A stretch of 64,000 nucleotides of DNA. It comes from Candidatus Xenobia bacterium (lineage in GTDB: Bacteria; Vulcanimicrobiota; Xenobia; Xenobiales; QWHO01). The stretch lies in contig BTUM01000003.1 of NCBI GenBank assembly GCA_045863235.1, positions 1 to 64,000 of the forward strand, read 5' to 3'. Position 1 is the first letter of the stretch. Each line of letters starts with the position of its first letter. This document shows, piece after piece, positions 9,125-46,288 of the stretch. A program made the position numbers and the translations under genes. The notes under the pieces are model-generated. The model made no database searches, had not been told where the DNA came from, and saw only the letters and a program-made list of their open reading frames with translations.

Positions 9125-10111
9125 ATGCGTCGTCATCCAAATCGCTGGGGCTTCCCCGACATGGGTCTGGGCATGGCGCTGCGCTCCAAGCACTATCCCG
9201 ACATCCTCGAGTCGAACCCTCCGGTGGCCTTCTTCGAAGTGATCGCCGAGAACTACATGGGCAACTTCGGGCGACCCATGTATTTGCTCGAGCAGGTGGC
9301 CGAGCGTTACCCCGTGATGGTGCACGGCGTATCCCTCTCCATCGGCTCCACCGATCCGCTCGACTTCGAGTACCTCGGCCTGCTGCGCAACCTGGCCGAC
9401 CGGCTGAAGGTGCCCTGGGTTTCCGACCACCTGTGCTGGACGGGGGTGCTCGGGCGCAACTCGCATGACCTTTTGCCCGTCCCCCTCACGGAGGAGTCGC
9501 TGCGTCACGTCATTCGGCGCATCCGGGCCGTGCAAGACTTCCTCGAACGTCCTCTGGTCGTGGAGAACCCCTCGAGCTACGTCGAGTTTCTGGCCTCCTC
9601 CATGAGCGAGGCCGAGTTCTTGTGCCGGATGGCCGAGGGGGCCGACTGCGGCCTCTTGCTGGACGTGAACAACGTCTACGTGAGCGCATTCAACCACGGC
9701 TTCGACGCCATGGAGTACCTGCGCGTGCTGCCCGTGGACCGGATCGTGTACCACCACGTGGCCGGCCACACCCACAAGGGCACCCACATTCTGGACACCC
9801 ACTCCGATCACGTGGTGGACCCGGTCTGGGAGCTCTATCGCTTCTGCCACGAGCGCACCGGCGGACGCTCGACGATGGTGGAGTGGGACGAGGACATTCC
9901 CCCATTCGAGGTGGTGTTCGAGGAGGTGCAGAAGGCGGCCGTGCATCGCCGGACAGTGGAGGGCGACGATTTCTCGCTGCCCGAGCGGCCGACCCCCAGC
10001 CTGGCTCCCCGCCGAGAGGACAATCGGGCCCCACACCCGGCCGGACTGGAGTCACCCGAGGCGGGCGATCTCTTCGTGCGCGAGAAGAACGTCGAGTTTG
10101 CCCATGAGTGA
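9125..10111 (+). CDS. DUF692 family multinuclear non-heme iron oxidative enzyme (MNIO)
   Basis: HGVSLSIG, SDHLCWTG, ENPSSY, LLLDVNNVYVS, HVAGH, DTH and EWDEDIP motifs. Confidence 0.93.
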   Translation: MRRHPNRWGFPDMGLGMALRSKHYPDILESNPPVAFFEVIAENYMGNFGRPMYLLEQVAERYPVMVHGVSLSIGSTDPLDFEYLGLLRNLADRLKVPWVSDHLCWTGVLGRNSHDLLPVPLTEESLRHVIRRIRAVQDFLERPLVVENPSSYVEFLASSMSEAEFLCRMAEGADCGLLLDVNNVYVSAFNHGFDAMEYLRVLPVDRIVYHHVAGHTHKGTHILDTHSDHVVDPVWELYRFCHERTGGRSTMVEWDEDIPPFEVVFEEVQKAAVHRRTVEGDDFSLPERPTPSLAPRREDNRAPHPAGLESPEAGDLFVREKNVEFAHE

Positions 10112-10883
10112 GCTGGTCAAGCTCCAACGCCAGATGTTCGCCCACGTGGTGGGCCAGGAAGCGACATTGCGGGCCGAGGAGTTCGTTGCCCCCTCGCCCA
10201 GCATGGACCCCGACGAGCGACTGGACGTCTACCGTCGTATGTACCCCTTGAGAATGCAAGAAGCGATGGGCATGGACTACCCCGCTACCCTCGAGCTCCT
10301 GGGCCGCCGGGCCTTCAATCGGCTGGTGATGGAGTATGTGGCCGTCCATCCCTCCCGCTCATGGACGCTGAACCGGCTGGGCGACCGCTTCGTGGACTAC
10401 CTGTCCACCCGCACCGACCTCAAGCACCATCGCTTCTTGCTCGACCTGGCACGGCTCGAGCAGGCCATCTGCCAGGTGTTCGAAGAGCGCGAGTCGGCCC
10501 CCCTGACCCCGGCCCAGGTGGCCTGTCTGCCCATGGAGGCCTGGGAGAGCACCGGCCTCAAGCCCATCGCCGCCTTCCGATTATTGGCGCTGCGCTATCC
10601 GGCCCACGCCTACCTCAAGTCGGTGTTGGAGGAAGGCTATCCCGCCCCCGCTCTGCGGCGCCAGGACGGCTGGCTGGTCGTCTTTCGCCAGCACTACAGC
10701 GTCTGGCGCATGCCGCTCGAGCGGGCCCAGTACGAGCTCTTGACCAACCTTGCTCAGGGCCTGAGCCTGGCCGAGTCGCTGGGGGACATCGCCGGGCGCT
10801 TCCGTCGGGTAGGAAGCCAGTCGATTTTCCGCTGGTTCCAGAGCTGGGTGACCGAGGGATTCTTTCAGTCGCTGGAGGCTTGA
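10104..10883 (+). CDS. DUF2063 family MNIO partner protein
   Basis: ERLDVYRRMY..R...DYP, HPSRSWTL and DLARLE motifs; overlaps the DUF692 stop. Confidence 0.85.
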   Translation: MSELVKLQRQMFAHVVGQEATLRAEEFVAPSPSMDPDERLDVYRRMYPLRMQEAMGMDYPATLELLGRRAFNRLVMEYVAVHPSRSWTLNRLGDRFVDYLSTRTDLKHHRFLLDLARLEQAICQVFEERESAPLTPAQVACLPMEAWESTGLKPIAAFRLLALRYPAHAYLKSVLEEGYPAPALRRQDGWLVVFRQHYSVWRMPLERAQYELLTNLAQGLSLAESLGDIAGRFRRVGSQSIFRWFQSWVTEGFFQSLEA

Positions 10884-20787: not shown

Positions 20788-21941
20788 CGAGCCCTCAGCA
20801 AGCGGGGCAGAGCCGGCAGGGCCAGCAGCAAGCCCAGCCCCATGCAGGCAAACAAACCCGAGAAGCCCAGGCTGACCACCAGCACGGGGGCGGCCAGATT
20901 GCCCAGGGTCTTGCCCAGACGCACTCCGCTGGCCGTCCAGGCGATTGCCTGACCGCGGCATGCGGGGGCAGCGGCCTCAGCCGAGGCGCTGTACAGACAG
21001 GGCAGGATGCCGCCCCGCAGGGCCCCCAGCAGAAAGCGCACCAGGCCCAGAACCGCCAGGCTGCCAGCCATGAGCTGAGCCAGGGTCAGGCAACCCGCCC
21101 CCACCAGGCTGAACGCCAGCACCCGGGTCGAGCCAAAGCGCTGAGCCAGCAGGCCCCACAGTGGGGTGGCCAGCATGGCGGCCAGACGCGAGCCGGTCAG
21201 GGCCACGCCCACCCAGAGGGCCCAGTTGGCGCCTCCTACCTCCTGCAGATAAACCGGCAGCACCGTGTCCTCCAGCGAGCGCCAGAGCAACACCCAGGCA
21301 GCCAGAGAAGCGGGGCCCAACCAGTTCACCCGGCTGCGAGAGCGAGGGGAAGCCGGAGCGCGGGGGGTCTCACGGGCCAGCCAGCCCACCATGGCAGCCG
21401 ACAGGGCTGCCATGACGGCCCCGGCCAGATAGAGTCCGGACGCGCCCACGGGGGCGAGCAGGAAGCTGCCCAGCAAGGGTCCCACCATGGCACCAGCCGT
21501 CACGCTGGTCTGGACCCAGGAGATGCGCTGGGCCGAGCGACGGCCGTCGGAGACCAGGGCCATGGCAGCCGGGGTCAGGCCCGCCAGGGCGCCGTGCACC
21601 ACCCGCGCCAACACCGCCTCGAGCGGGGTGCGGGCGCAGCTCATGAAGGCCAGCGCCAGAGCCATGCCCAGGTGGGCTCGCACCAGCATCTTCTTGTGCC
21701 CGATACGGTCGCCCAGCCTGCCCCACAGGGGCGTGCACAGGAGCGAGGCCAGGAAGGTGACCAGGTTGGCCAGCGCGGTCCAGCGCAAGATATCCGCGCT
21801 GCCCTGCACGCCCAGATCGGCGAAATAGGCGGGCAGGAAGACGATGCCCATCTCCAGGCCGGCAATACTGAGCAACTGACACAAACACAGGGCGTAGAAG
21901 GCCCTTACCGCCCACAGGCGACGGCGCAGCGGGCGGCTCAT
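20784..21941 (-). CDS. MFS exporter (probable siderophore export)
   Basis: WGRLGDRIGHKKM motif A, about 12 TM, coupled to the NIS synthetase gene. Confidence 0.88.
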   Translation of the reverse strand: MSRPLRRRLWAVRAFYALCLCQLLSIAGLEMGIVFLPAYFADLGVQGSADILRWTALANLVTFLASLLCTPLWGRLGDRIGHKKMLVRAHLGMALALAFMSCARTPLEAVLARVVHGALAGLTPAAMALVSDGRRSAQRISWVQTSVTAGAMVGPLLGSFLLAPVGASGLYLAGAVMAALSAAMVGWLARETPRAPASPRSRSRVNWLGPASLAAWVLLWRSLEDTVLPVYLQEVGGANWALWVGVALTGSRLAAMLATPLWGLLAQRFGSTRVLAFSLVGAGCLTLAQLMAGSLAVLGLVRFLLGALRGGILPCLYSASAEAAAPACRGQAIAWTASGVRLGKTLGNLAAPVLVVSLGFSGLFACMGLGLLLALPALPRLLRAR

Positions 21942-23605
21942 GCCAGAGGATTCTCCACCTGGCAGAAGTCGTACTGGTGCGAGCGCCCTCCCAGGCGCAT
22001 GCGGGTCAGCGCCTTGACCTCGATCCGGGGCGCGAACCAGAGCCGCTCAGCCTCGGGTCCGTAGCACCAGTGCTCGCGGAAGGCTCGGGAGGCGGCCCGC
22101 CAGAGCAGGCGCTCGTGCACCTTGTAGGTCTCGGCCAGGGCCGAGAAGACCGGGGCCAGGTGGCCTTGCAGGTAGGTATGGTGTGACTTGGCCACCAGTT
22201 CCTCGGGGGTTCGGGCGATCACCACCGAAGCCGGGTGCAGGCTGACATCCAGGCCCCTGCGGTGGAGCCAGTCGAACAGGATGCGGATACCACCCAGGTC
22301 GCGCAGTACCAGCTCGACAGGCTGACCCTGGCGCAGGCGTACGAGGCAGTTCTGACCATGAGCCTCGATGGCCACCCCGTACTCGAACAGGGCTGGCAAG
22401 AAAGTGCGGGCGGTCAGCTCGGTGTAGGCGATGGCAAAGGCCACCGGATCGCCGCCGAAAAGCTCCACCGCCTCGGCCACCAGCGCTCGGCCGTCCAGCG
22501 GATTGCGCTCCGAAAGAACGGCCACCGGGACCAACCAGGTGCCCGGCACCGGCTCGGGGGCCTGGCGGAACAACAGTGACAGGTGGCGGGCCCGGTCGAG
22601 ATCCTCGCCTTCCTGCCAGAAGTGGATGCCCCGCTCCTCGGCCTGCAGGGTCACTCCCGGGATCTGGCGCAGCAGGGCCGACAGACGGGGGCCGTTCTGG
22701 GCCGACTGAGGGCTGACCGTCCGCAGCGCGCTGGTCGACTGCACCGCCAGCGGCAGCTTGAGGTGATGGGCTCCGGGCTGATCCAACGGCACCACGGTGC
22801 GAAGCGATGCCAGGGGTGTCGCCGGGAACCGGGTCTTCAGAGCACGCAAAACGCCCCTTCGGAACTCGTCGGCAAACAACTCGGGCAGCTTGTGCTGGTA
22901 TTGCCAGGGATGCACGGCCAGCAGGTGGTAATCTTCCGGGCTCTCCAGCTCGGACTCGAGCACCTGGCGCCAGGCGGGCGGGAGGTCGGCGGGAGCGATG
23001 GCCGTGTCCACCGCGTGGTCGCGCCGCAAGGCCACGAAACGAAGATCGAGCCGGCAGCCCAGCTCCGGCGAGTAGCGCTCGAGCTCCTCAGAGCTGAAAC
23101 CGAAACGCGTCTTACAGCCGGGATGGAGCTCGTGGCCACGGAGGTTCCAGCCCTCCAGAGCCACCTCTCCCGCCGCCAGGGCGTGCTCGTGCCCCTGGGC
23201 GATCAACTCGGCAGCTCGAGCCGGAACAGCTGCCAAGAAGCGATCCAGATTGGTCGCTGACTGCTCGAGCTCAGCCTTGAGCAAGGGCCAGTTCAGCCCT
23301 GGCTCTCCCCACAAGGCGGCCAGCCGCTCGACCGCCTGCGCAGGAGTGCGCAGCTCCTCCAACCGGCCCTCACCGGCCTTGCGCAGCACGTAGGGAGGAG
23401 CGGTGCGCAGCCGGTCCAGGGCACGGCGGTGATCGACGTGAGCGAGCAGCTCGCTCTGGTCGTTCAGCTTGAGGATGGCCCGGCGGCCGTCGGCGGAAAG
23501 ACGGCGACCAGCATTCAACCCCTCTCGCCAGAGGGCGTTGAACAACCGGTCGAGTACCTCGTGGGATCCCTGTGTGATAGGTTTTGTTCGCGTCGATTTA
23601 GGCAT
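21938..23605 (-). CDS. IucA/IucC family NRPS-independent siderophore synthetase
   Basis: GHELHPGCKTR, VHPWQ, SLRTV, KLPLAVQSTSALR, EAHGQN and RDLGG motifs; start approximate. Confidence 0.93.
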   Translation of the reverse strand: MPKSTRTKPITQGSHEVLDRLFNALWREGLNAGRRLSADGRRAILKLNDQSELLAHVDHRRALDRLRTAPPYVLRKAGEGRLEELRTPAQAVERLAALWGEPGLNWPLLKAELEQSATNLDRFLAAVPARAAELIAQGHEHALAAGEVALEGWNLRGHELHPGCKTRFGFSSEELERYSPELGCRLDLRFVALRRDHAVDTAIAPADLPPAWRQVLESELESPEDYHLLAVHPWQYQHKLPELFADEFRRGVLRALKTRFPATPLASLRTVVPLDQPGAHHLKLPLAVQSTSALRTVSPQSAQNGPRLSALLRQIPGVTLQAEERGIHFWQEGEDLDRARHLSLLFRQAPEPVPGTWLVPVAVLSERNPLDGRALVAEAVELFGGDPVAFAIAYTELTARTFLPALFEYGVAIEAHGQNCLVRLRQGQPVELVLRDLGGIRILFDWLHRRGLDVSLHPASVVIARTPEELVAKSHHTYLQGHLAPVFSALAETYKVHERLLWRAASRAFREHWCYGPEAERLWFAPRIEVKALTRMRLGGRSHQYDFCQVENPLA

Positions 23606-23611
23606 ACCTAA
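23598..23611. promoter_or_regulatory. Putative DtxR/IdeR-type metal-responsive operator
   Basis: Palindrome TTAGG-CATA-CCTAA over the start of the siderophore operon. Confidence 0.5.
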
Positions 23612-23712
23612 CAGCCCATGCAAGGCAATGTTGGGAGTCTACATGAGGACGCCTAAACATGCAACCCCCCCGGCAGGTCCAGTCTTGCTCTCAAGCGAAC
23701 CGTGCGAGCGCT

Positions 23713-29427: not shown

Positions 29428-30699
29428 CTACACAGCCTGACCGGCACGCAGAGCGGCCAGCGCCTCCAGAGCTCGCAGCACCCCAAGCTGGACCTGGGCA
29501 AAACTCACCCCCCCCTGCAGGTAGCAGGCATAGGGCTCGCGCAGGGGCCCATCGGCGCTCAGCTCGATGGACGAGCCCTGAATGAACGTGCCCCCGGCCA
29601 TCAGGATCGGGTCGCGATACCCCGGGTTCATGACCGGCTCGGGGGTGGCCCGATGGTCCACCGCTCCGCCGCCCTGCACGCCCCGACAGAAGGCCTTCTG
29701 CGCTTCGACGCTGCCCAGCCGCACGGCCTGGATGAGGTCGGTGCGCGGGTCATTCCAGCGCGGCCAGGCCTCCAGGCCCTCCTGCTCGAGCATCCAGGCG
29801 GCCCAGACGGCGCCCTCCAGGGCCTGGCCCACGATCAGCGGGGCCAGGAAGAGCCCCTGGGCCAGGGTGCGATTCATGCCCAGCGTGGGGCCCTCCTCGG
29901 GCCCGATTCCAGGAGCGGTCAGGCGCACCATGGCCCGTTCCACCCACTCACTGCCGCCCGCCAGGTAGCCCCCGGTGGGCGCCAGCGAGCCGCCCAGGTT
30001 CTTGATCAGCGAGCCGGCCACCAGGTCTGCGTCCAACTCGATCGGCTCGATGGGCTCCACCAGCTCTCCATAGCAGTTGTCCACCAGCACCACCGCTCGA
30101 GGAGCCACCCGGCGCAGGCGCGAGATGCACGCACCCAGCTCGGCCACCGTCAGCGAGCGCCGCCAGGTGTAGCCGCGCGAGCGCTGCAGGAAGACCATGC
30201 GGGTGCCCGGTCGCATGAAGCCTTCCACCGCCTCCAGGTCGATCGAGCCGTCCGGGAGCAGCGCCAGCTCGCGGTAGTTGACCCCCAGCTCGTGCAGCGA
30301 GCCCGGGCCGGGCCCGATGACAGGCTGAAGCGTGTCATAGGGTGGCCCGGTCAGGCTGACCAGCTCATGGCCAGGGAGCAGGACCCCGAACAGCGCCGCC
30401 GAGATGGCATGGGTCCCTGAGACGATCTGCAGGCGCAGGCGGGCAGCCTCGGCCCGGAAGATCCGGGCCAGAGCCCGGTCAAGCAGTTCGCGACCCGAGT
30501 CGTGGAACCCGTAGCCGGTGGTGCCATAGAAGTGCCCTTCGGAGAGCCCCTCAGCCTGCAAGGCCGCCAGCACTTTGAGCTGGTTGGCGCCGGCGGCGCG
30601 ACGGACCTCGGAGCGGACCGACTCGGTGGCCTCCTCGCCCTGACGGGCCAGGCGGGCCAGTCGCTCGGATACCCCCAGTTCGATCAGGGCCTTGTGCAA
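29428..30699 (-). CDS. Methionine gamma-lyase family / aluminium resistance protein (YnbB-like)
   Basis: TGYG..D.GR, SGTHAI, QRSRGY, DNCYGE, GSLIKNLGG, ELSADGP. Confidence 0.9.
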   Translation of the reverse strand: MHKALIELGVSERLARLARQGEEATESVRSEVRRAAGANQLKVLAALQAEGLSEGHFYGTTGYGFHDSGRELLDRALARIFRAEAARLRLQIVSGTHAISAALFGVLLPGHELVSLTGPPYDTLQPVIGPGPGSLHELGVNYRELALLPDGSIDLEAVEGFMRPGTRMVFLQRSRGYTWRRSLTVAELGACISRLRRVAPRAVVLVDNCYGELVEPIEPIELDADLVAGSLIKNLGGSLAPTGGYLAGGSEWVERAMVRLTAPGIGPEEGPTLGMNRTLAQGLFLAPLIVGQALEGAVWAAWMLEQEGLEAWPRWNDPRTDLIQAVRLGSVEAQKAFCRGVQGGGAVDHRATPEPVMNPGYRDPILMAGGTFIQGSSIELSADGPLREPYACYLQGGVSFAQVQLGVLRALEALAALRAGQAV

Positions 30700-30806
30700 A
30701 GTCTCTCCCGGTGCCCACGCAGAAATTACGCTCGCGGCGTGGCGTGGTCGCTTGCGCTGGGGACGGGAGATTTCCTGCCCGGGTCGACCAGGGCGGGAGT
30801 TGGGCT

Positions 30807-31604
30807 TTACGTTGCCTGGCGTTCGTGGTGGAGCCCCAGCCGGTAGAGCAGGGTCTTCACCTCGAAGGGTTTGAGGTCGGGGTACCGCTCGAGCAGCAGG
30901 GCCACGATGCCGGCCACCCTGGGGGCCGCAAAGCTGGTGCCGATGTAGTAGAAGTGAGAGTCGGTGCCGGCCCGGGGGGCGCGTACCATGTCGCCCTGGG
31001 CGTCCAGCCAGATGCGGGGCTTGGGGCCGTAGAGCACCTTGGAACGCTCGCGCAACCGGAAGGCCATCGGGTCCCTGAAGTAGTCGGAGTTGACCGAGAC
31101 TACCGAGGAGAAGCTGGCCGGCACGATCCAGTCGAAGTTGTTGGAGGCCGCCGCCACCAGCGTGATGTCGCGGTAGTAGGCCTGATCCACCAGCTCGAGA
31201 AAGCGCGAGCGCCAGTAGTCGTTGACGCCCTGGTCCAGGCCCAGGCTGAGGTTGACGACCCGGATATCTTGTTTGATCACGTATTCCAGCGCTCCCTGGA
31301 ACACCTCGGGGTCGCAGGTGCCTTCCTCGGAGAGCACCCGGATGAAGTGGAGCTCGGCCTCGGGGGCGGTGTCGTTGACGATCCAGCTGACCGGGGTGCC
31401 ATGCCCGAAGGGATCGGTGGGCTGCTCGAAAGGCTGGTAGCTGCGAGTCAGAAAGCTGCCGCAGCTCTTGAGGCGAGAGCGCACCCCCTCCATCATGGGG
31501 TGGACCAGGTCCAGCCCCGAGTCCAGAATCGCCACCGAGACGCCCTTTCCGGTCAGGCCGCTGAGGAGCGTCTCGGGCTGAAGGTCGCGCAGCAGGTCGT
31601 TCAT
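30807..31604 (-). CDS. S8 (subtilase) serine peptidase, no signal peptide or obvious prodomain
   Basis: Triad motifs ILDSG, GHGT, GTSFAAP; AAASN oxyanion residue. Confidence 0.92.
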   Translation of the reverse strand: MNDLLRDLQPETLLSGLTGKGVSVAILDSGLDLVHPMMEGVRSRLKSCGSFLTRSYQPFEQPTDPFGHGTPVSWIVNDTAPEAELHFIRVLSEEGTCDPEVFQGALEYVIKQDIRVVNLSLGLDQGVNDYWRSRFLELVDQAYYRDITLVAAASNNFDWIVPASFSSVVSVNSDYFRDPMAFRLRERSKVLYGPKPRIWLDAQGDMVRAPRAGTDSHFYYIGTSFAAPRVAGIVALLLERYPDLKPFEVKTLLYRLGLHHERQAT

Positions 31605-32656
31605 GGTCGGGCCACCTCGGCCAGGTAGCGCTCCAGGGTGGACCTCCAGAAGCCGAGATGGTGCCCCCCCAGGGCCTTGAGGGCCTGCAGGTTGTGCACC
31701 AGATCCATCATCTCCCGCTCGGCCAGATCACTGGAGCGCGCCTGGTGGGTGACCCGCTCGAAGGCGGCGGTCACCTCGGCGGTGGGTTTGCCCCGCCCCT
31801 CCTCCTGGACCGCCAGCACCCGGTTGAGCGCGCGCACCAGCAAGCTGGAAAAGCGCTCTTCGTGGCGGTGGGCGGCCAGCACGGCAGCGGCCAGCCGGCC
31901 CAACTGCACCATCAGGCTGACCTGCTCGGGACGGAAGGTGGGCCTGCCTCCCTCCCTGGCCACCTCCAGAACCCCCAGGCAGCGGCCGTGATTCATCAGG
32001 GGCACGGCCAGAAGCGAGGACTTGCCCCGCTCGAAGGGGGTAAGACCGGTCGGATCCTCATCCCCCGCCAGACCCACGCACTTCTCCAAACGGCTCTTGA
32101 AGGCGTCGTGCACCAGGCCCCTGCTGGCGCGCAGGTCCTCGGGAACCGGCAGGGGGTAACCCACCGCCTCCAGCGCAGTGAGCTGGCCGCCCGAGTCGAC
32201 CCCGAAAAGCCAGCCCCCATCCGCCGAGGCAGCCATGGCGGCGGCATTGACGATCTGGCGTTCCAGCTCACGATAGGCGGGGGCGGCGGTGAGGGCCTCG
32301 GCGTGGTGCAGAAAGCGGGCCACGTCGTGGATGGCCTGGTGGAAAGCATGCACGGAGAGCTGGTGGCGGTGGGCCGCGATCCGATCCAGCAGGGCCGGCC
32401 AGTCGACCGGACGGGCCACAAACTCGGTCAGACCGGCTCGGAGGGCGGGGCCGACCGACTCCTCGCCCACCACCACGAAGCACGGGATCCGCCCCAGGCG
32501 GGGCTTGAGCTGCAGGTAGCGCTCCAGCTCGGCCAGGGATACCACCGCCACGTCCACCTCAGGATGGGGCTCGCTGACGCAGGGGATCTGCTCCGGACCC
32601 GGTCCCTCGGAATCGAGCAGCAGAATCGAGCGGATGCCGACGGAAGTCTCCAGCAT
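31601..32656 (-). CDS. GAF-domain protein with degenerate N-terminal receiver-like domain
   Basis: SLLAVPLMNHGRCLGVLEV...F GAF motif; AGLTEFVARP resembles a receiver C-terminus. Confidence 0.75.
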   Translation of the reverse strand: MLETSVGIRSILLLDSEGPGPEQIPCVSEPHPEVDVAVVSLAELERYLQLKPRLGRIPCFVVVGEESVGPALRAGLTEFVARPVDWPALLDRIAAHRHQLSVHAFHQAIHDVARFLHHAEALTAAPAYRELERQIVNAAAMAASADGGWLFGVDSGGQLTALEAVGYPLPVPEDLRASRGLVHDAFKSRLEKCVGLAGDEDPTGLTPFERGKSSLLAVPLMNHGRCLGVLEVAREGGRPTFRPEQVSLMVQLGRLAAAVLAAHRHEERFSSLLVRALNRVLAVQEEGRGKPTAEVTAAFERVTHQARSSDLAEREMMDLVHNLQALKALGGHHLGFWRSTLERYLAEVARP

Positions 32657-32671
32657 ACTAGTTCCTCGCTT

Positions 32672-34477
32672 TCAGACGTGGACCGCTTCTTGTAGCGAAC
32701 GCAGCTCTTCGCGCATCAACTCGGCCTGGGTTTGCCAGAGCTCGCTGTAAAGGCCATCCTGCGCCACCAGCTCGGCATGGGTTCCCCGCTGTGCGATGCG
32801 CCCCTCCTGGAAGACCAGGATCAGGTCGGCGTGGGGAGTCAGGGCGTAAAGCCGGTGAGTCACCGCCAGCACGGTGCGGTCGGACCGACTCTGAGCCAAC
32901 ATCCGGTAGAAGCGTGACTCGGTCAGAGGGTCGAGATTGGAAGTCGCTTCATCCAGGAGCAAGATGCGTGGCGAAGCCAGCAGGGCCCGGGCCAGCGCTA
33001 CCCGCTGCCCTTCGCCCCCGGACAGGTTCTCGCCGAAACGCCCGATCCTGGTGGCCAGCCCCTCGACGGAGAAACGTCGGTCGCCCCGCATGTCGATCTG
33101 GGCCTGCTCGAGCGCCTCCAGCTGGCGCTGGTCGGAGGGAGGATCGGGGTTGCCCATGGTCAGGTTGTCGCTGAGCGTGCCCTCGAACAGCATGGGCCGC
33201 TGCGAAACGGTGACCAGGCCGCTGCGCAGGTCGCTCAGGGGGATCTCGCCCAGGGGCTTACCGCCCAGCAGCACGCTGCCCCGATCGGGCTGGACGAAGT
33301 TGGGCAGAAGGTCAAAGAAGGTCGACTTACCCGCCCCACTGGTGCCCACCAGAGCCACCAGGCTGCCCTCGGCAAGGGAGACCGAGGCGTCCTGTAACGA
33401 GGGGGCTCCCTCGTGCAGCACGGTCACGTCCACCAGGTCGATGCTCTTGAAGCCGGCCAGGTCCCGGCCGGGAGCGCCCTCGTCGCGCTCCTCGGGCTGG
33501 TCGAGGATCTGGCGCATCTGTTGGAGCTGGGGCAGAGCCTGCCGATAGCTGCGGGCGGCCGACATCAAGCTCATCAGGGGCTGAGCCAGGATGCCCTGGG
33601 CCAGCACGAAGACCAGCACGTGCCCGGTCAGCGACACGCGGTCGTTCTCAGGCAGCATCGGGGCCAGCAGAAACAGCACCACGGCCAGGATGACCAGGGT
33701 TCCTGAGGCATTGAAGATGAGTTGCTGAGCCTGCTGGTCGAGCTCGTTGAGATGGGTCTCCTCCTCCCCCACCTCGTCCATCTGGCCCAGGTAGCCCTGA
33801 GTACGGCCAAGCCAGCGCGAGGCGGCCCGAAAGACCTTGAGCTCGCGAATGCCCAGCAAAGCCTGGCTGAGCACATCAAAGAAGCCCTCCGAGATCTGCT
33901 GGCGCTGACTGGCCATAAGCTCCACCCGGTCCTTGAGCAAGAAGTACGGGAGAGCGTAGGTGAGGAACACCGCCACCAGCACCAGGGTCAGCACCGGCTG
34001 GTAGAGGGCCAGGAAGAAGATGATGGCCAGGGCCGAGATGAGGTCCAGGGGCAGGCCGATGACGGCCATCTCGACCACCTCGGCCAGGCCTGTGGCTGCC
34101 CAGGCCAGGGTGGACATCAGGTTGGGGAACTCGAGCCTGCGGTGGGCGGAGAGCGGCATGGCCAGCACGTGCCGGACCAGTTGCCGGCTGACCTCCAGCG
34201 AAAAACGGCGGGCCAGCCGGCGCCGGTAGATTTGCACCCGGTGGTTGAGAAAGCCGCGCAACAGGTAGAGGGCCATCAGGCCCAGCATCATCGGCAGGGG
34301 GGACTTTCCGGCCAGGAAGGAGCCGGGCTCGAAGATGGCTCCGAAGAGCAGCATCATGGTGACCAGCGCCCCCAGCTCGGCGGCCAGAGCCATCAGCGTC
34401 AAAAGGCCCAGGAAGAGCCAGCTGCGGGTGGCCCCGCCCAGGTGCAGCTGGCGCACCAGCCAGCGGTACTGGCTCAT
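32672..34477 (-). CDS. ABC exporter, fused permease/ATPase
   Basis: N-terminal TM domain, GTSGAGKST, LSGGEGQR, ILLLDEATS; no C39 domain. Confidence 0.92.
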   Translation of the reverse strand: MSQYRWLVRQLHLGGATRSWLFLGLLTLMALAAELGALVTMMLLFGAIFEPGSFLAGKSPLPMMLGLMALYLLRGFLNHRVQIYRRRLARRFSLEVSRQLVRHVLAMPLSAHRRLEFPNLMSTLAWAATGLAEVVEMAVIGLPLDLISALAIIFFLALYQPVLTLVLVAVFLTYALPYFLLKDRVELMASQRQQISEGFFDVLSQALLGIRELKVFRAASRWLGRTQGYLGQMDEVGEEETHLNELDQQAQQLIFNASGTLVILAVVLFLLAPMLPENDRVSLTGHVLVFVLAQGILAQPLMSLMSAARSYRQALPQLQQMRQILDQPEERDEGAPGRDLAGFKSIDLVDVTVLHEGAPSLQDASVSLAEGSLVALVGTSGAGKSTFFDLLPNFVQPDRGSVLLGGKPLGEIPLSDLRSGLVTVSQRPMLFEGTLSDNLTMGNPDPPSDQRQLEALEQAQIDMRGDRRFSVEGLATRIGRFGENLSGGEGQRVALARALLASPRILLLDEATSNLDPLTESRFYRMLAQSRSDRTVLAVTHRLYALTPHADLILVFQEGRIAQRGTHAELVAQDGLYSELWQTQAELMREELRSLQEAVHV

Positions 34478-34484
34478 GACAAGA

Positions 34485-34512
34485 AGGCCACCCCGGTGCC
34501 CCGGAGTGGCCT
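34485..34512 (-). terminator. Stem-loop between the precursor-like gene and the ABC gene
   Basis: Minus strand aggccactccgg-ggca-ccggggtggcct followed by tcttg. Confidence 0.6.
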
Positions 34513-34532
34513 CTGGTCAGAGCCTGTTGGAG

Positions 34533-34937
34533 CTAAATGTGGACCCACACACCCGGGCCGCCACCGCCCCAGTAGTGCGGATGGTAGCCATAGTAAGGGT
34601 GATTGGGGTGCCACTGCCACCACTGGGCCGACACCTGCGGAGAGCCCGCGGGCGCGCCTGCCGGCATCGGCATGGGCATCGGACGGCCCGGCATCGGCAT
34701 GCCGGCCCGGCCCATCAGCTCGGCTAAATTCAGATTGAGCACGATGGATTGGGGCATGGGCATCCCCTGGCCCATCATCATCGGGGGAGGAGCGCCGGGA
34801 TCGCCGGGGCCGCCTTCGGTCATTCCGGCCGAAGCCAGGGTCTCGCGGACCTTGTCGGGCGCCACGACGTATTTCTTCGCGTCGCCATCGGGGATGTTCA
34901 GGAACTCACCAGTCTTCAAATCACGGGCAATCGCCAT
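34533..34937 (-). CDS. Putative peptide precursor (134 aa; Met/Pro-rich linker, W/H/Y-rich C-terminal tail)
   Basis: GGAGG RBS, ATG at 34937; MAIARDLKTGEF...QVSAQWWQWHPNHPYYGYHPHYWGGGGPGVWVHI. Confidence 0.75.
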   Translation of the reverse strand: MAIARDLKTGEFLNIPDGDAKKYVVAPDKVRETLASAGMTEGGPGDPGAPPPMMMGQGMPMPQSIVLNLNLAELMGRAGMPMPGRPMPMPMPAGAPAGSPQVSAQWWQWHPNHPYYGYHPHYWGGGGPGVWVHI

Positions 34938-35148
34938 GAGAAAGGCCTCCTTCGGTTCGAGGTGTCCGGGGATTCGTTCCCCCACCCCGGTATGACCTGC
35001 GTGCCGGGAGCGAAAGTTCCCATTGTTGGTCCTCGCGTCCCGAAACACAGGCAAAACCTTCCTGACAGAACGCGCACAGCTAAGTCCGGTCGCAAACCCC
35101 TGTGGTGGCCGGAAAACCGCGTCAAGGGGTCTTCCGGCGGCGCTCCTC

Positions 35149-35289
35149 CTAGCGCCAGAGCAGTAAGAGGGCGAAGGCCAGGCTCAGCACCACCAGGACC
35201 CTTCCCGGCAGGCCCACCCCCCAGTTCTTCTCGCAGTCCAAACAACGGCCACCCCGGCGGGCTCGTGCGCAACGTCGACAGTAGAGCAT
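35149..35289 (-). CDS. 46-aa zinc-ribbon/TM mini-protein (absent from ORF track)
   Basis: MLYCRRCARARRGGRCLDCEKNWGVGLPGRVLVVLSLAFALLLLWR. Confidence 0.5.
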   Translation of the reverse strand: MLYCRRCARARRGGRCLDCEKNWGVGLPGRVLVVLSLAFALLLLWR

Positions 35290-35461
35290 ACTGATTTGAC
35301 GACGCATCCAGAAAAAAGGTTCAGCCTTGAGCCAGGCTCAAGTTGAAGGAACCGGGACCCCTGCTCGGAGAACATCCTGCGCTCTTTGGAAACAGGCCCA
35401 AGGAGGTTTCTCCACCGGTCGCGGGTAAGAGAATTCAGGGGAAAGGGGGTTCGGGTCTGCC

Positions 35462-36085
35462 TTGGAATGTCCTAAGTGCCGTTACATCAGCCTTCCTGGC
35501 TCGCATTTCTGCGAGAAGTGTGGCTACGACTTGAAGGCTTTCCGAGCCCGCCGCACGGCCGGGCCGGGCCCCGCTCCAGCGCCCCGGGGGCCGGCGCCCA
35601 TGCCTTCCCCGGCTCCCGCTCCGACGCCGGCCGGTCGACCGATGCCGGCCCCGGTCCAATCCCAGCCGCCGGCCCCGGCTGCCCGGGCTCAGGCACCGGT
35701 CATTCCCCCGCTGCCTTCCCCCAGGAAGCCTGAGCCGCCTCCCCCTCCACCTTTTGCACGCCTCGAGTTGCTGGGGGGCGACGGCCAGGTCTACCTGCTC
35801 TGCACCGACACTGTGCGGGTGGGCCGGCTCAGCCCGGCCGACGGCATCCTGCCCGAGATCGACCTGACCGCTCACGACTCAAAGGGAACGGTTTCTCGAC
35901 GCCACGCCATGATTACCCGAGAAGGGGAGCAAGTTTACCTCGAAGACTCCGGCAGCATCAACGGCACGCATGTCAACGGCACGCGGCTGGCTTCCGGAGT
36001 CCAGCGCCCACTCCAGGAAGGCGATCAAGTCTGCTTTGGAGAGGTGGCGTTTCGCTACCATCACGTGAAACAAGGAGCACCATAA
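35462..36085 (+). CDS. Zinc-ribbon / Pro-rich / FHA domain protein
   Basis: CPKC..CEKC; FHA motifs GR, VSRRHA, DSGSINGT. Confidence 0.88.
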   Translation: MECPKCRYISLPGSHFCEKCGYDLKAFRARRTAGPGPAPAPRGPAPMPSPAPAPTPAGRPMPAPVQSQPPAPAARAQAPVIPPLPSPRKPEPPPPPPFARLELLGGDGQVYLLCTDTVRVGRLSPADGILPEIDLTAHDSKGTVSRRHAMITREGEQVYLEDSGSINGTHVNGTRLASGVQRPLQEGDQVCFGEVAFRYHHVKQGAP

Positions 36086-37984: not shown

Positions 37985-38797
37985 GTGGAAAACTGGGATG
38001 AAGAGCTGGAGGAAGCCCTCGTCGAGGAGCTTCACGCTCTGCCGTGGATCGACTTCGTCTACCTGTTCGGCTCCACCGTGAGGGGCGACGCGCGACCTGA
38101 CAGTGACGTGGACATCGCTGTCCGCATCGGTCAGGGCGCGCCCCCCTCGCCACTGTTCAGCCTGCTGTCCACCTGCAATCGGGCCGTGGGACCCGGCAAG
38201 CTGCACCTGGTGCTGTTCGATCAGGCGCCCGTGCTTTTGCGCCAGCGCATCTTCGAAGAGGGTCGGGTGCTGCTGCAGAACAACCCGGTCTCGCGCATGC
38301 AGGCCCAGGCGCAGACCATCCGCGACTTCTTCGAGCTCAAGCCCGAGGAGAAGGCCGAGCAAGAGTACCACACCCTCCTGCAAACCGACCCCGAGGGCAA
38401 CTCGCGCAAGCTGGCCATCTTGATGCAGTATCGGCGCGACCTCGAGCCATTCGCCCAGCAAACCGAGGCCGAGTTCCTGGCTCGGCCCGAGCGGCACCAC
38501 CTGGCAGCCCGCTACCTCCACATGCTGTGCGAAGGAATGCTGGACCTGACCCTGTTCGTCATCCTCGACCACGGCTGGCGCTGGCCCCAGTCACCCGTGG
38601 ACGCCCTCAACGTGGTTCGCGAGCGCAACGTCATCGACTTTGGCCTGGCCAACCGGCTGCAAGCCTGGCTGGGCCTGCGCCAGATGCTCTCCCACAAGTA
38701 CGCCGCCCCCGATCACCGGCTCAACTTTCTCTTCCTGCGCGACCGCACCCTCGACCTGGACGAGTTCTTCGAGTGGGTCGGGAAGTTCTTGACCTGA
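37985..38797 (+). CDS. Fused MNT nucleotidyltransferase + HEPN (DUF86/HepT-like) protein
   Basis: LFGSTVRG...SDVDIAV and RQMLSHKY (Rx4HxY) in one ORF. Confidence 0.8.
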   Translation: MENWDEELEEALVEELHALPWIDFVYLFGSTVRGDARPDSDVDIAVRIGQGAPPSPLFSLLSTCNRAVGPGKLHLVLFDQAPVLLRQRIFEEGRVLLQNNPVSRMQAQAQTIRDFFELKPEEKAEQEYHTLLQTDPEGNSRKLAILMQYRRDLEPFAQQTEAEFLARPERHHLAARYLHMLCEGMLDLTLFVILDHGWRWPQSPVDALNVVRERNVIDFGLANRLQAWLGLRQMLSHKYAAPDHRLNFLFLRDRTLDLDEFFEWVGKFLT

Positions 38798-45546: not shown

Positions 45547-45557
45547 CAAAGGTGCGA

Positions 45558-45621
45558 GTGACCTTCAGCGGCCAGACGGTCTACTACCTCACCGAGCGAG
45601 CCCTCTTCCGGATCGGGGCGG
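45558..45621 (+). repeat. Partial copy of 44931-45015 with a 21-bp internal deletion
   Basis: gtgaccttcagcggccag joined to acggtctactacctcaccgagcgagccctcttccgg. Confidence 0.85.
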
Positions 45622-45701
45622 AAGTCCGAGCCTGCTTGTTACTTGACACACACTGCCTTATGTTCGACGCTGAACCAAGAGTTTGTGCGGAGGCCTGTGC
45701 G

Positions 45702-45899
45702 ATGGCGACCAACATTGAGATCGACCCTGCGCTGGTCGAGGAGGCCAGAACCCTTGGTGGTCATAAGACAAAACGGGAAACCTTCGAGGCAGCCTTACGC
45801 GAATACGTGAGGTTGCGAAAGTCCCGGGGAATCCTGGCATATTTCGGCAAGGTCGAGTTCGACGAGGACTATGACTACAAAAGCGCGAGAAGCCGTTGA
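45702..45899 (+). CDS. vapB: VapB family antitoxin (DUF2191-like)
   Basis: MATNIEID..LVEEA..LGGHKTKRE...AL.EY. Confidence 0.88.
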   Translation: MATNIEIDPALVEEARTLGGHKTKRETFEAALREYVRLRKSRGILAYFGKVEFDEDYDYKSARSR

Positions 45900-46288
45900 G
45901 AGTCCTGGTAGATACTTCGGTGTGGTGGGTGGCGCTCCGGCCTGGGCGATGTCACCCTGAGGCCGATAGACTCCGGCATATGATCGTGACCGGTGACCAG
46001 GTTTGTGTCCTGGGCATCATCATCCAAGAAGTGTTACAGGGAATCGCAAACGCGGAGCTGGCAGAGAGCATCCAGGTTGAGCTGGAGCCCTTTGACCTTT
46101 TTGACCTGACCCGAGAGGACTATGTGGCGGCAGCTACCCTGCATCGTACCTGTCGATCTGGCGGAATCGCAGCAGGGAGCATCGATTGTCTGATCGCGGC
46201 AGCGGCGGAGCGGCACGATTGCTACTTGCTCACTCTGGACAATGATTTTGACAGGCTCGCATCGTTCTGCCAGCTCAGGCTCCTCTAG
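45896..46288 (+). CDS. vapC: VapC PIN-domain toxin
   Basis: LVDTSVW, QEVLQG, IDCLIA, LLTLDNDF. Confidence 0.9.
   Translation: MRVLVDTSVWWVALRPGRCHPEADRLRHMIVTGDQVCVLGIIIQEVLQGIANAELAESIQVELEPFDLFDLTREDYVAAATLHRTCRSGGIAAGSIDCLIAAAAERHDCYLLTLDNDFDRLASFCQLRLL

Follow-up and report, generated by a model that had tools for sequence, protein, structure and literature searches.

Class II bacteriocins consist of an unmodified core peptide behind a double-glycine leader and are exported by a PCAT (an ATP-binding cassette transporter that contains a peptidase). In the systems closest to the one considered here, a subtilisin-like (S8) protease acts in the cytoplasm: QhpE cuts off a leader there before export by an ATP-binding cassette (ABC) transporter (PMC7876137), and ElxP is the cytoplasmic S8 protease of epilancin 15x, with the site (D/E)-(L/V)-X2-Q, according to a review whose main text does not mention GAF (PMC10885120). 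The subject of this work is a cassette of four genes for a small precursor, an ABC exporter, a GAF-domain protein, and a short S8 protease, located in a stretch of 64,000 nucleotides (positions 1 to 64,000 of contig BTUM01000003.1) from a Candidatus Xenobia bacterium of the phylum Vulcanimicrobiota; the whole stretch is called the window below. The cassette is apparently an undescribed, conserved variant of the known QhpE/QhpF- or ElxP-type processing. In the reading that we hold with moderate confidence, the S8 protease would cut the precursor after V-S-A-Q in the cytoplasm, the ABC transporter would export the unmodified 29-residue tail, and the GAF protein would regulate the protease.

The Cassette and Its Recurrence

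A preliminary description of the locus had reported four closely spaced minus-strand genes, and these were recovered as open reading frames (ORFs) (Table 1); 15 nt separate the ABC and GAF genes, whereas the GAF gene shares 4 nt with the S8 gene. The strong ribosome-binding site assigned there to the 134-residue precursor is the AAGGAGG found 8 nt ahead of the ATG, and a recount of the tail behind Q-V-S-A-Q gave the same 29 residues with 5 W, 5 H, and 4 Y. This predicted core, WWQWHPNHPYYGYHPHYWGGGGPGVWVHI, has a monoisotopic mass of 3569.6 Da, is rich in W, H, P, Y, and G, and contains no K, R, D, E, Cys, Ser, or Thr. The stem-loop noticed behind the precursor gene has a folding energy of -43.1 kcal/mol (z -6.46; 0 of 200 shuffled sequences fold as well). 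The ABC protein, said to lack a C39 domain, has an ABC_membrane domain that begins at residue 27 and an ABC_tran domain; a C39 match was not obtained, and its orthologues are 47–93% identical. The third product had been called a receiver-like/GAF protein with no output domain, which agrees with a GAF domain at residues 129–260 of 351 and with a receiver that is undetected by Pfam in the window protein and exceeds the Pfam cut-off in two of its orthologues. The 265-residue protease has the intact triad and lacks a signal peptide, as claimed; the S8 domain begins as early as residue 19, too close to the N-terminus for either a signal peptide or a propeptide, and its catalytic residues (Table 1) are invariant in 13 aligned S8 proteases, the orthologues being 65–94% identical.

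The order precursor-hairpin-ABC-GAF-S8 is repeated in three more loci: metagenome contig L006, genome G004 (L007), and genome G109 (L014), the last belonging to another family. The flanks of the four Vulcanimicrobiota loci, window included, differ and have no fifth gene in common; the proposed check for co-occurrence of the precursor with S8, GAF, and ABC genes was thus positive. For four further precursor/GAF pairs, linkage was deduced from the identical size of the longest source contig (74709, 17904, 11855, and 34128). Of 401 genomes of the phylum, 6 gave a match to a profile built from close precursors, three with the cassette and three (G054, G066, and G063) described in the next section. 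In G109, the cassette is immediately followed downstream by a second, longer S8 gene, which belongs to another clade (L014, 5022–6401, minus strand).

No tailoring enzyme is encoded in the cassette in any of the four loci read, as had been noted for the window. This, the degenerate receiver, the ABC gene of G109, which the assembly shows as two separate frames, and the patchy presence of the cassette-type precursor (3 of 401 genomes) would fit a decaying remnant of a larger cluster for a peptide made on the ribosome and modified after translation (RiPP), with no useful product. Such a remnant is very improbable, considering that three cassette loci have every one of the four ORFs intact, that the hairpin shows a compensatory change from one family to another, that all 8 core sequences are still W/H/P-rich, and that the S8 orthologues retain the identity and the invariant triad described above.

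A Leader Family with Exchangeable Cores

A leader-only profile, built from 21 sequences, matched 110 proteins of 71–218 aa among the 7991 candidates scored, and none of the 110 carries a Pfam domain. Their sources, few of which are named, include Verrucomicrobia, Syntrophobacteraceae, and a bin labelled Armatimonadetes. The common plan combines the leader with a G/P linker, in most cases a brief hydrophobic strand, and a junction, V-x-[APG]-[YQH], present in 93 of the 110 members (mean 24.5 and maximum 35 in 200 shuffles, a partly circular control, as the motif was derived from the same sequences). At P5, 72 of the 93 junctions have E, D, or Q, and 50 have D or E. The tails that follow are variable and aromatic, mostly with (W/Y)-x-N repeats; at least two [WYF]-x-N motifs occur in 75 of the 93 junction-bearing tails versus 0 of 8 cores in the clade of the window. 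The profile check thus bore out a conserved leader with a variable aromatic tail, as had been expected, across the wider family; among the cassette-bearing relatives the tail is fairly conserved, which refines the expectation. Seven of the 17 members lacking the motif have a double-glycine-type junction, and most others are near-variants or seemingly truncated or frameshifted. In G054 and G066 the leader is carried on a Cys/Ser/Gly-rich core after D-V-R-G-Y and adjoins a radical S-adenosylmethionine (rSAM)/SPASM enzyme and a YcaO protein; both clusters (L016, 7524–14791, and L015, respectively) also encode a CxxCxxCC-tetratricopeptide repeat (TPR) protein, a membrane TPR protein, and an unassigned 338-aa protein. 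In G063 it is joined to a Cys-rich core, and the contig ends within the precursor. Judged by its anatomy, this is a family of RiPP leaders in which cores and junctions can be exchanged.

The leader, about 38 residues long, is apparently unnamed, having no match in the family libraries or papers searched. The window precursor and its close relatives matched nothing in Pfam or NCBIfam, the NHLP and Nif11 leader profiles included, and 9 distant members of the family gave sub-threshold matches only. In the AlphaFold2 model, residues 1–40 form a beta-hairpin and two helices (predicted local distance difference test, 71–87) and the remainder is disordered. A Foldseek comparison of this model with the PDB returned nothing at E <= 0.001, and an ESM Atlas search with the precursor gave only a 0.80 feature match, which is at chance level. 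An alignment search of cluster representatives yielded 23 matches, one of them false (P0040, an insect fibronectin-like protein, which was discarded). No second precursor copy was found in genome G000, and no relatives of the leader in the plasmids and viral contigs searched.

In the window's clade, the 8 cores (a count that omits P0009, which ends before any core) contain no [WYF]-x-N motif, no Cys, and no charged residue, and 6 of them have one H-x-N. Because the clade lacks both the W/Y/F-x-N motif and a tailoring gene, it is likely an unmodified peptide that is exported, and within a family of RiPP precursors the cassette likely represents a stripped branch, devoid of (W/Y)-x-N repeats and of a modifying enzyme. 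An antimicrobial role of the cationic type seems unlikely because K or R occurs in none of the 8 cores. On composition, a bulk role of the His and aromatic residues in metal binding or self-association is favoured over it, though tentatively, with a chance somewhat below even provided that the rest of the reading holds.

The S8 Protease, Its GAF Neighbour, and Other Precursors

A search of the phylum for the S8 protease revealed 15 places in 11 of 401 genomes. At 11 of the 15 an output-less GAF gene adjoins the S8 gene (two of these neighbours were assigned by near-identity, the others by Pfam); two places are near contig ends, and two have no GAF gene. In a tree of 28 S8 proteases, 15 short enzymes, that of the window among them, stand apart from 13 others with support of 100/100, a separation that is partly by construction, the members having been chosen by similarity. 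The clade members at L042, L047, L048, and L049 have a C-terminal extension, recognized by Pfam as a MerR helix-turn-helix (HTH) in L042. Two of these four S8 genes directly precede a gene for an ABC exporter of about 870 aa.

The modelled GAF protein has long helices around GAF and no enzymatic domain, and similar stand-alone GAF clusters from several phyla are present in the Atlas. The window receiver has lost one helix and carries Ser at the phospho-acceptor position and Arg in place of the conserved Lys, which probably makes it a pseudo-receiver. Towards the S8 protease, which has no propeptide, the GAF protein probably acts as a regulatory or activating partner. A complex prediction of the S8 protease with GAF protein residues 98–351 gave a score of 0.01, which is no evidence either way. 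Nothing relevant was retrieved from the literature searched for GAF together with S8 and peptide terms; passages from PMC12186529 proved unrelated.

Similar loci carry other precursors. In G001, which belongs to the same genus, the order precursor-hairpin-ABC-GAF-S8 is the same (L053, 6011–9863, minus strand), and the 75-aa precursor has an unrelated leader, with no match to the leader profile, followed by the junction E-V-E-A-Q and a tail that contains two pairs of Cys. Two of the three plasmids examined for relatives of the protease have the S8-GAF pair. On that of Streptomyces sp. NBC_00184, an enzyme of the same S8 clade and a stand-alone GAF protein belong to an aroma-sacti/StsA-related cluster (NF045560), the precursor of which has an E-V-Q-A-H junction and a short core; it differs from the window in its leader, in also encoding an rSAM together with an iron redox enzyme and an adenylate/guanylate cyclase, and in having a major facilitator superfamily (MFS) transporter instead of an ABC exporter. 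On the Miltoncostaea plasmid a small NHLP-clan-like ORF, under the cut-off and without a junction, is found near the pair.

Several points weigh against the reading of the cassette as a dedicated peptide-processing system. The GAF-S8 pair is not always linked to a peptide at its locus, as 7 of the 11 GAF-S8 loci have no evident precursor in the fetched flanks, and next to the S8 relative on the third plasmid, that of Gemmatirosa, there is no GAF gene. The cassette encodes neither a membrane-fusion nor an outer-membrane partner. P5 is Q in the window versus D/E in the ElxP site (PMC10885120). The folded leader is retained although the cassette has no leader-binding enzyme, and the notion of a stripped branch draws on the cores and the f13 loci. 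To these must be added the split ABC gene of G109 and the partial circularity of the shuffle control. We infer cleavage, export, GAF control, and the role of the peptide alike; of the peptide-system interpretation in the preliminary description, the precursor-protease-exporter system stands, and the GAF gating and the three functions proposed (signalling, antimicrobial, or metal-binding) stay conjectural along with the cleavage and export.

The loci with no adjacent precursor, the GAF-S8 pairs of G048, G057, and G062, where the leader profile has no match, and the fusion of some clade members to a MerR HTH would suit a GAF-S8 pair that serves in signalling as a general protease and acts on other substrates, the precursor being exported uncut or matured by another protease. 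Such a role is distinctly unlikely, as three unrelated leaders beside this S8 clade (window, G001, and Streptomyces) all end in V-x-A-[QH], and the four-gene block, with its overlapping GAF and S8 genes, stays intact across differing flanks.

Comparison with Described Systems

The cassette resembles QhpE/QhpF of quinohemoprotein amine dehydrogenase biogenesis, in which a short cytoplasmic subtilisin-like protease removes the leader and operon-encoded ABC export follows (PMC7876137); the fit here is one of anatomy. QhpE (NF049966) is the best NCBIfam match of the window S8 protease, at 96 bits, below the cut-off of 165; moreover, the substrate is no enzyme subunit, a GAF partner is present, and none of the genes qhpA, qhpB, qhpC, and qhpD was found on scanning the cassette and 48 other ORFs of the window; qhpG is lacking too. 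The likeness to ElxP, another cytoplasmic S8 protease, extends in part to the junction: the window Q-V-S-A-Q has V at P4 and Q at P1, as in the ElxP site (PMC10885120), and Q at P5, where relatives often have D or E. The end of V-S-A-Q is the most likely site of the cut proposed in the preliminary description, the cleavage itself being a prediction.

No LanB, LanC, or LanM gene is present, the core lacks the Cys, Ser, and Thr residues of lanthipeptides, and the leader is unrelated to that of ElxP. As for the cyanobactin proteases PatA/PatG, TIGR03895 scores 19.9 bits versus 421, and the sites G(L/V)E(A/P)S and AYDG are absent from the precursor. With class II bacteriocins the cassette has in common an unmodified core and an ABC exporter, and the 7 family members with a double-glycine-type junction add to the likeness; it differs in having no C39 domain, no GG site in the precursor, and no immunity-like gene, and in its uncharged core. 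The triceptide-like (W/Y)-x-N precursors that carry the window-type leader have the leader, linker layout, and junction motif in common with the window, whereas the window cassette has no rSAM and all 8 cores of its clade lack [WYF]-x-N, the single H-x-N of 6 cores notwithstanding. Of a RiPP cluster, the precursor with leader and core is present and the cassette tailoring enzyme is absent in all four loci. The earlier statement that the locus fits no known class holds insofar as the locus fails the tests for QhpE, lanthipeptides, cyanobactins, triceptides, and PCAT systems, and goes too far insofar as its logic matches QhpE/QhpF and ElxP and its leader falls in a RiPP-like family. In the literature searched, available partly as abstracts, with few subscription papers and without supplementary tables, no paper was found on this leader or on a GAF-paired S8 protease in peptide clusters.

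Possible Tailoring in trans

The leader is conserved and predicted to be folded, though the cassette encodes no known leader reader, and the window-type leader also serves the rSAM/YcaO clusters. Both observations would suit a true RiPP, with the core modified by an enzyme encoded elsewhere (an rSAM, an oxidative enzyme that depends on multinuclear non-heme iron (MNIO), or a P450) that reads the leader. Candidates exist: genome G000 has 9 SPASM matches, and in the window, 20 kb from the cassette, an MNIO gene (PF05114, 9125–10111) and its DUF2063 partner (9125–10883 for the pair, plus strand) have no evident precursor ORF of at least 35 aa adjoining them. Against such an arrangement, the MNIO was not found in the cassette-bearing G004 (97% complete), nor in G001, yet it was found in the cassette-less G007 and G013, as well as in G109; the two rSAMs profiled were present in 5 of 5 genomes tested regardless of the cassette; two rSAM loci have small adjacent ORFs of their own; and the cores of the window's clade are devoid of Cys and [WYF]-x-N. 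A partner acting in trans has no support among the three enzymes profiled (the MNIO and two rSAMs); modification by another enzyme, such as a P450, retains some probability, though we consider it unlikely.

It is also worth recording that in G000:C60 (L058, 882–2861, plus strand) a 150-aa ORF with five V-Q-A-L-Y-G-V-A repeats is followed by a TIGR04103-like rSAM (705 bits versus 725) and a 95-aa ORF, which looks like a RiPP cluster of the splicease type; the repeat resembles the V-x-A-x junction. In G000:C42 (26498–27687, plus strand), a 43-aa ORF with an aromatic C-terminal motif directly precedes a DynA/cyclophane-like rSAM.

Hairpin, Possible Promoter, and RNA Contigs

Only 8 nt lie between the 3' arm of the hairpin and the start codon of the ABC gene, and no Shine-Dalgarno sequence is evident there. 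L006 has the identical hairpin core, and in G109 it differs by one C-G to T-A change; G004 has another hairpin. It is likely an attenuator or an mRNA stabiliser and, standing before an ABC start without an evident Shine-Dalgarno sequence, would provide for much precursor and little machinery. An Rfam scan of 30000–36000 gave 0 matches, the hairpin was not among the results of the terminator scan, and the sigma-70 scan gave 0 promoter-like sites. Upstream of the precursor, GGAACTT-N17-GTCAT is kept in three loci (window, L006, and L007), with the 17-nt spacer changed; it resembles a promoter for a sigma factor of the extracytoplasmic function (ECF) type. Genome-wide counts of ECF-like motifs are flat across spacings, with no enrichment of N17. 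Several GGAAC-N17-GTCT matches in G000 stand ahead of genes whose products have a lipoprotein-like N-terminus, which suggests a regulon under an ECF sigma factor.

The window sequence is present in sludge, wastewater, and bioreactor runs. A 449-nt contig from RNA library X11 spans 34522–34970 with no differences, and one contig from X16 bridges 34258–35003; such contigs may include DNA and show presence rather than transcription, and their depth cannot rank the genes. In library X2 coverage extends evenly over intergenic DNA, and this library may contain DNA; stretches without contig coverage are uninformative.

Table 1. Features of the cassette and its upstream region, with their positions in the window.
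Feature	Position	Strand	Basis
Precursor gene, 134 aa	34533..34937	-	ORF; no Pfam or NCBIfam family
Leader domain, precursor residues 1-38	34824..34937	-	Leader-only profile matches; predicted beta-hairpin and two helices
Junction V102-S-A-Q105, predicted S8 cut after Q105	34623..34634	-	Family motif; ElxP motif
Predicted core peptide, 29 aa	34536..34622	-	Composition; mass computed
11-bp hairpin core, then TTCTTGTC and ABC start codon	34486..34511	-	Folding z -6.46
ABC exporter half-transporter (transmembrane and nucleotide-binding domains), 601 aa	32672..34477	-	Domain profiles
Degenerate receiver, GAF, and helical C-terminus, 351 aa	31601..32656	-	Profiles; model
Short S8 protease, 265 aa, without signal or propeptide	30807..31604	-	D28, H68, N155, S224
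Shine-Dalgarno AAGGAGG, 8 nt 5' of precursor ATG	34946..34952	-	Invariant in aligned loci
-35-like box GGAACTT, possible ECF-sigma promoter	35014..35020	-	Kept in window, L006, and L007
-10-like box GTCATA, same possible ECF-sigma promoter	34991..34996	-	GTCAT invariant in 3 of 3 aligned loci

Elsewhere in the window are an IucA/IucC-type siderophore synthetase gene with an MFS gene (21941–23623, minus strand), a gene for a fused nucleotidyltransferase-HepT protein (37985–38797, plus strand), and a VapBC pair (45552–46288, plus strand).

Proposed Mechanism and Implications

In the mechanism that we favour, the precursor of 134 residues would be made in excess over its machinery, and the signal-less S8 protease would cut it in the cytoplasm after V-S-A-Q (Q105), with the GAF protein acting as the regulatory or activating partner of this propeptide-less enzyme. 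The ABC transporter would then move the unmodified, uncharged 29-residue tail, rich in Trp, His, Tyr, and Pro, across the inner membrane, outside which the released peptide may act in bulk, by metal binding through His and aromatic residues or by self-association. A bolder generalization, possible though doubtful, is that of a widespread, undescribed module in which a propeptide-less cytoplasmic subtilase is switched on, or supplied with its substrate, by a stand-alone GAF protein and a portable [DEQ]-V-x-[APG]-[YQH] site serves unrelated precursors, here combined with a new leader and an enzyme-free, uncharged Trp/His metal-binding or self-assembling peptide of the envelope.

If the GAF protein controls the S8 protease, the cassette would provide a ligand-gated maturation step, of which none is described in the literature searched. 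The predicted cleavage site and the small S8 protease may offer a sequence-specific tool. The leader, carried by at least 110 proteins, all of them unannotated, provides a handle to mine triceptide-like, Cys-rich, and unmodified peptides in uncultured phyla.

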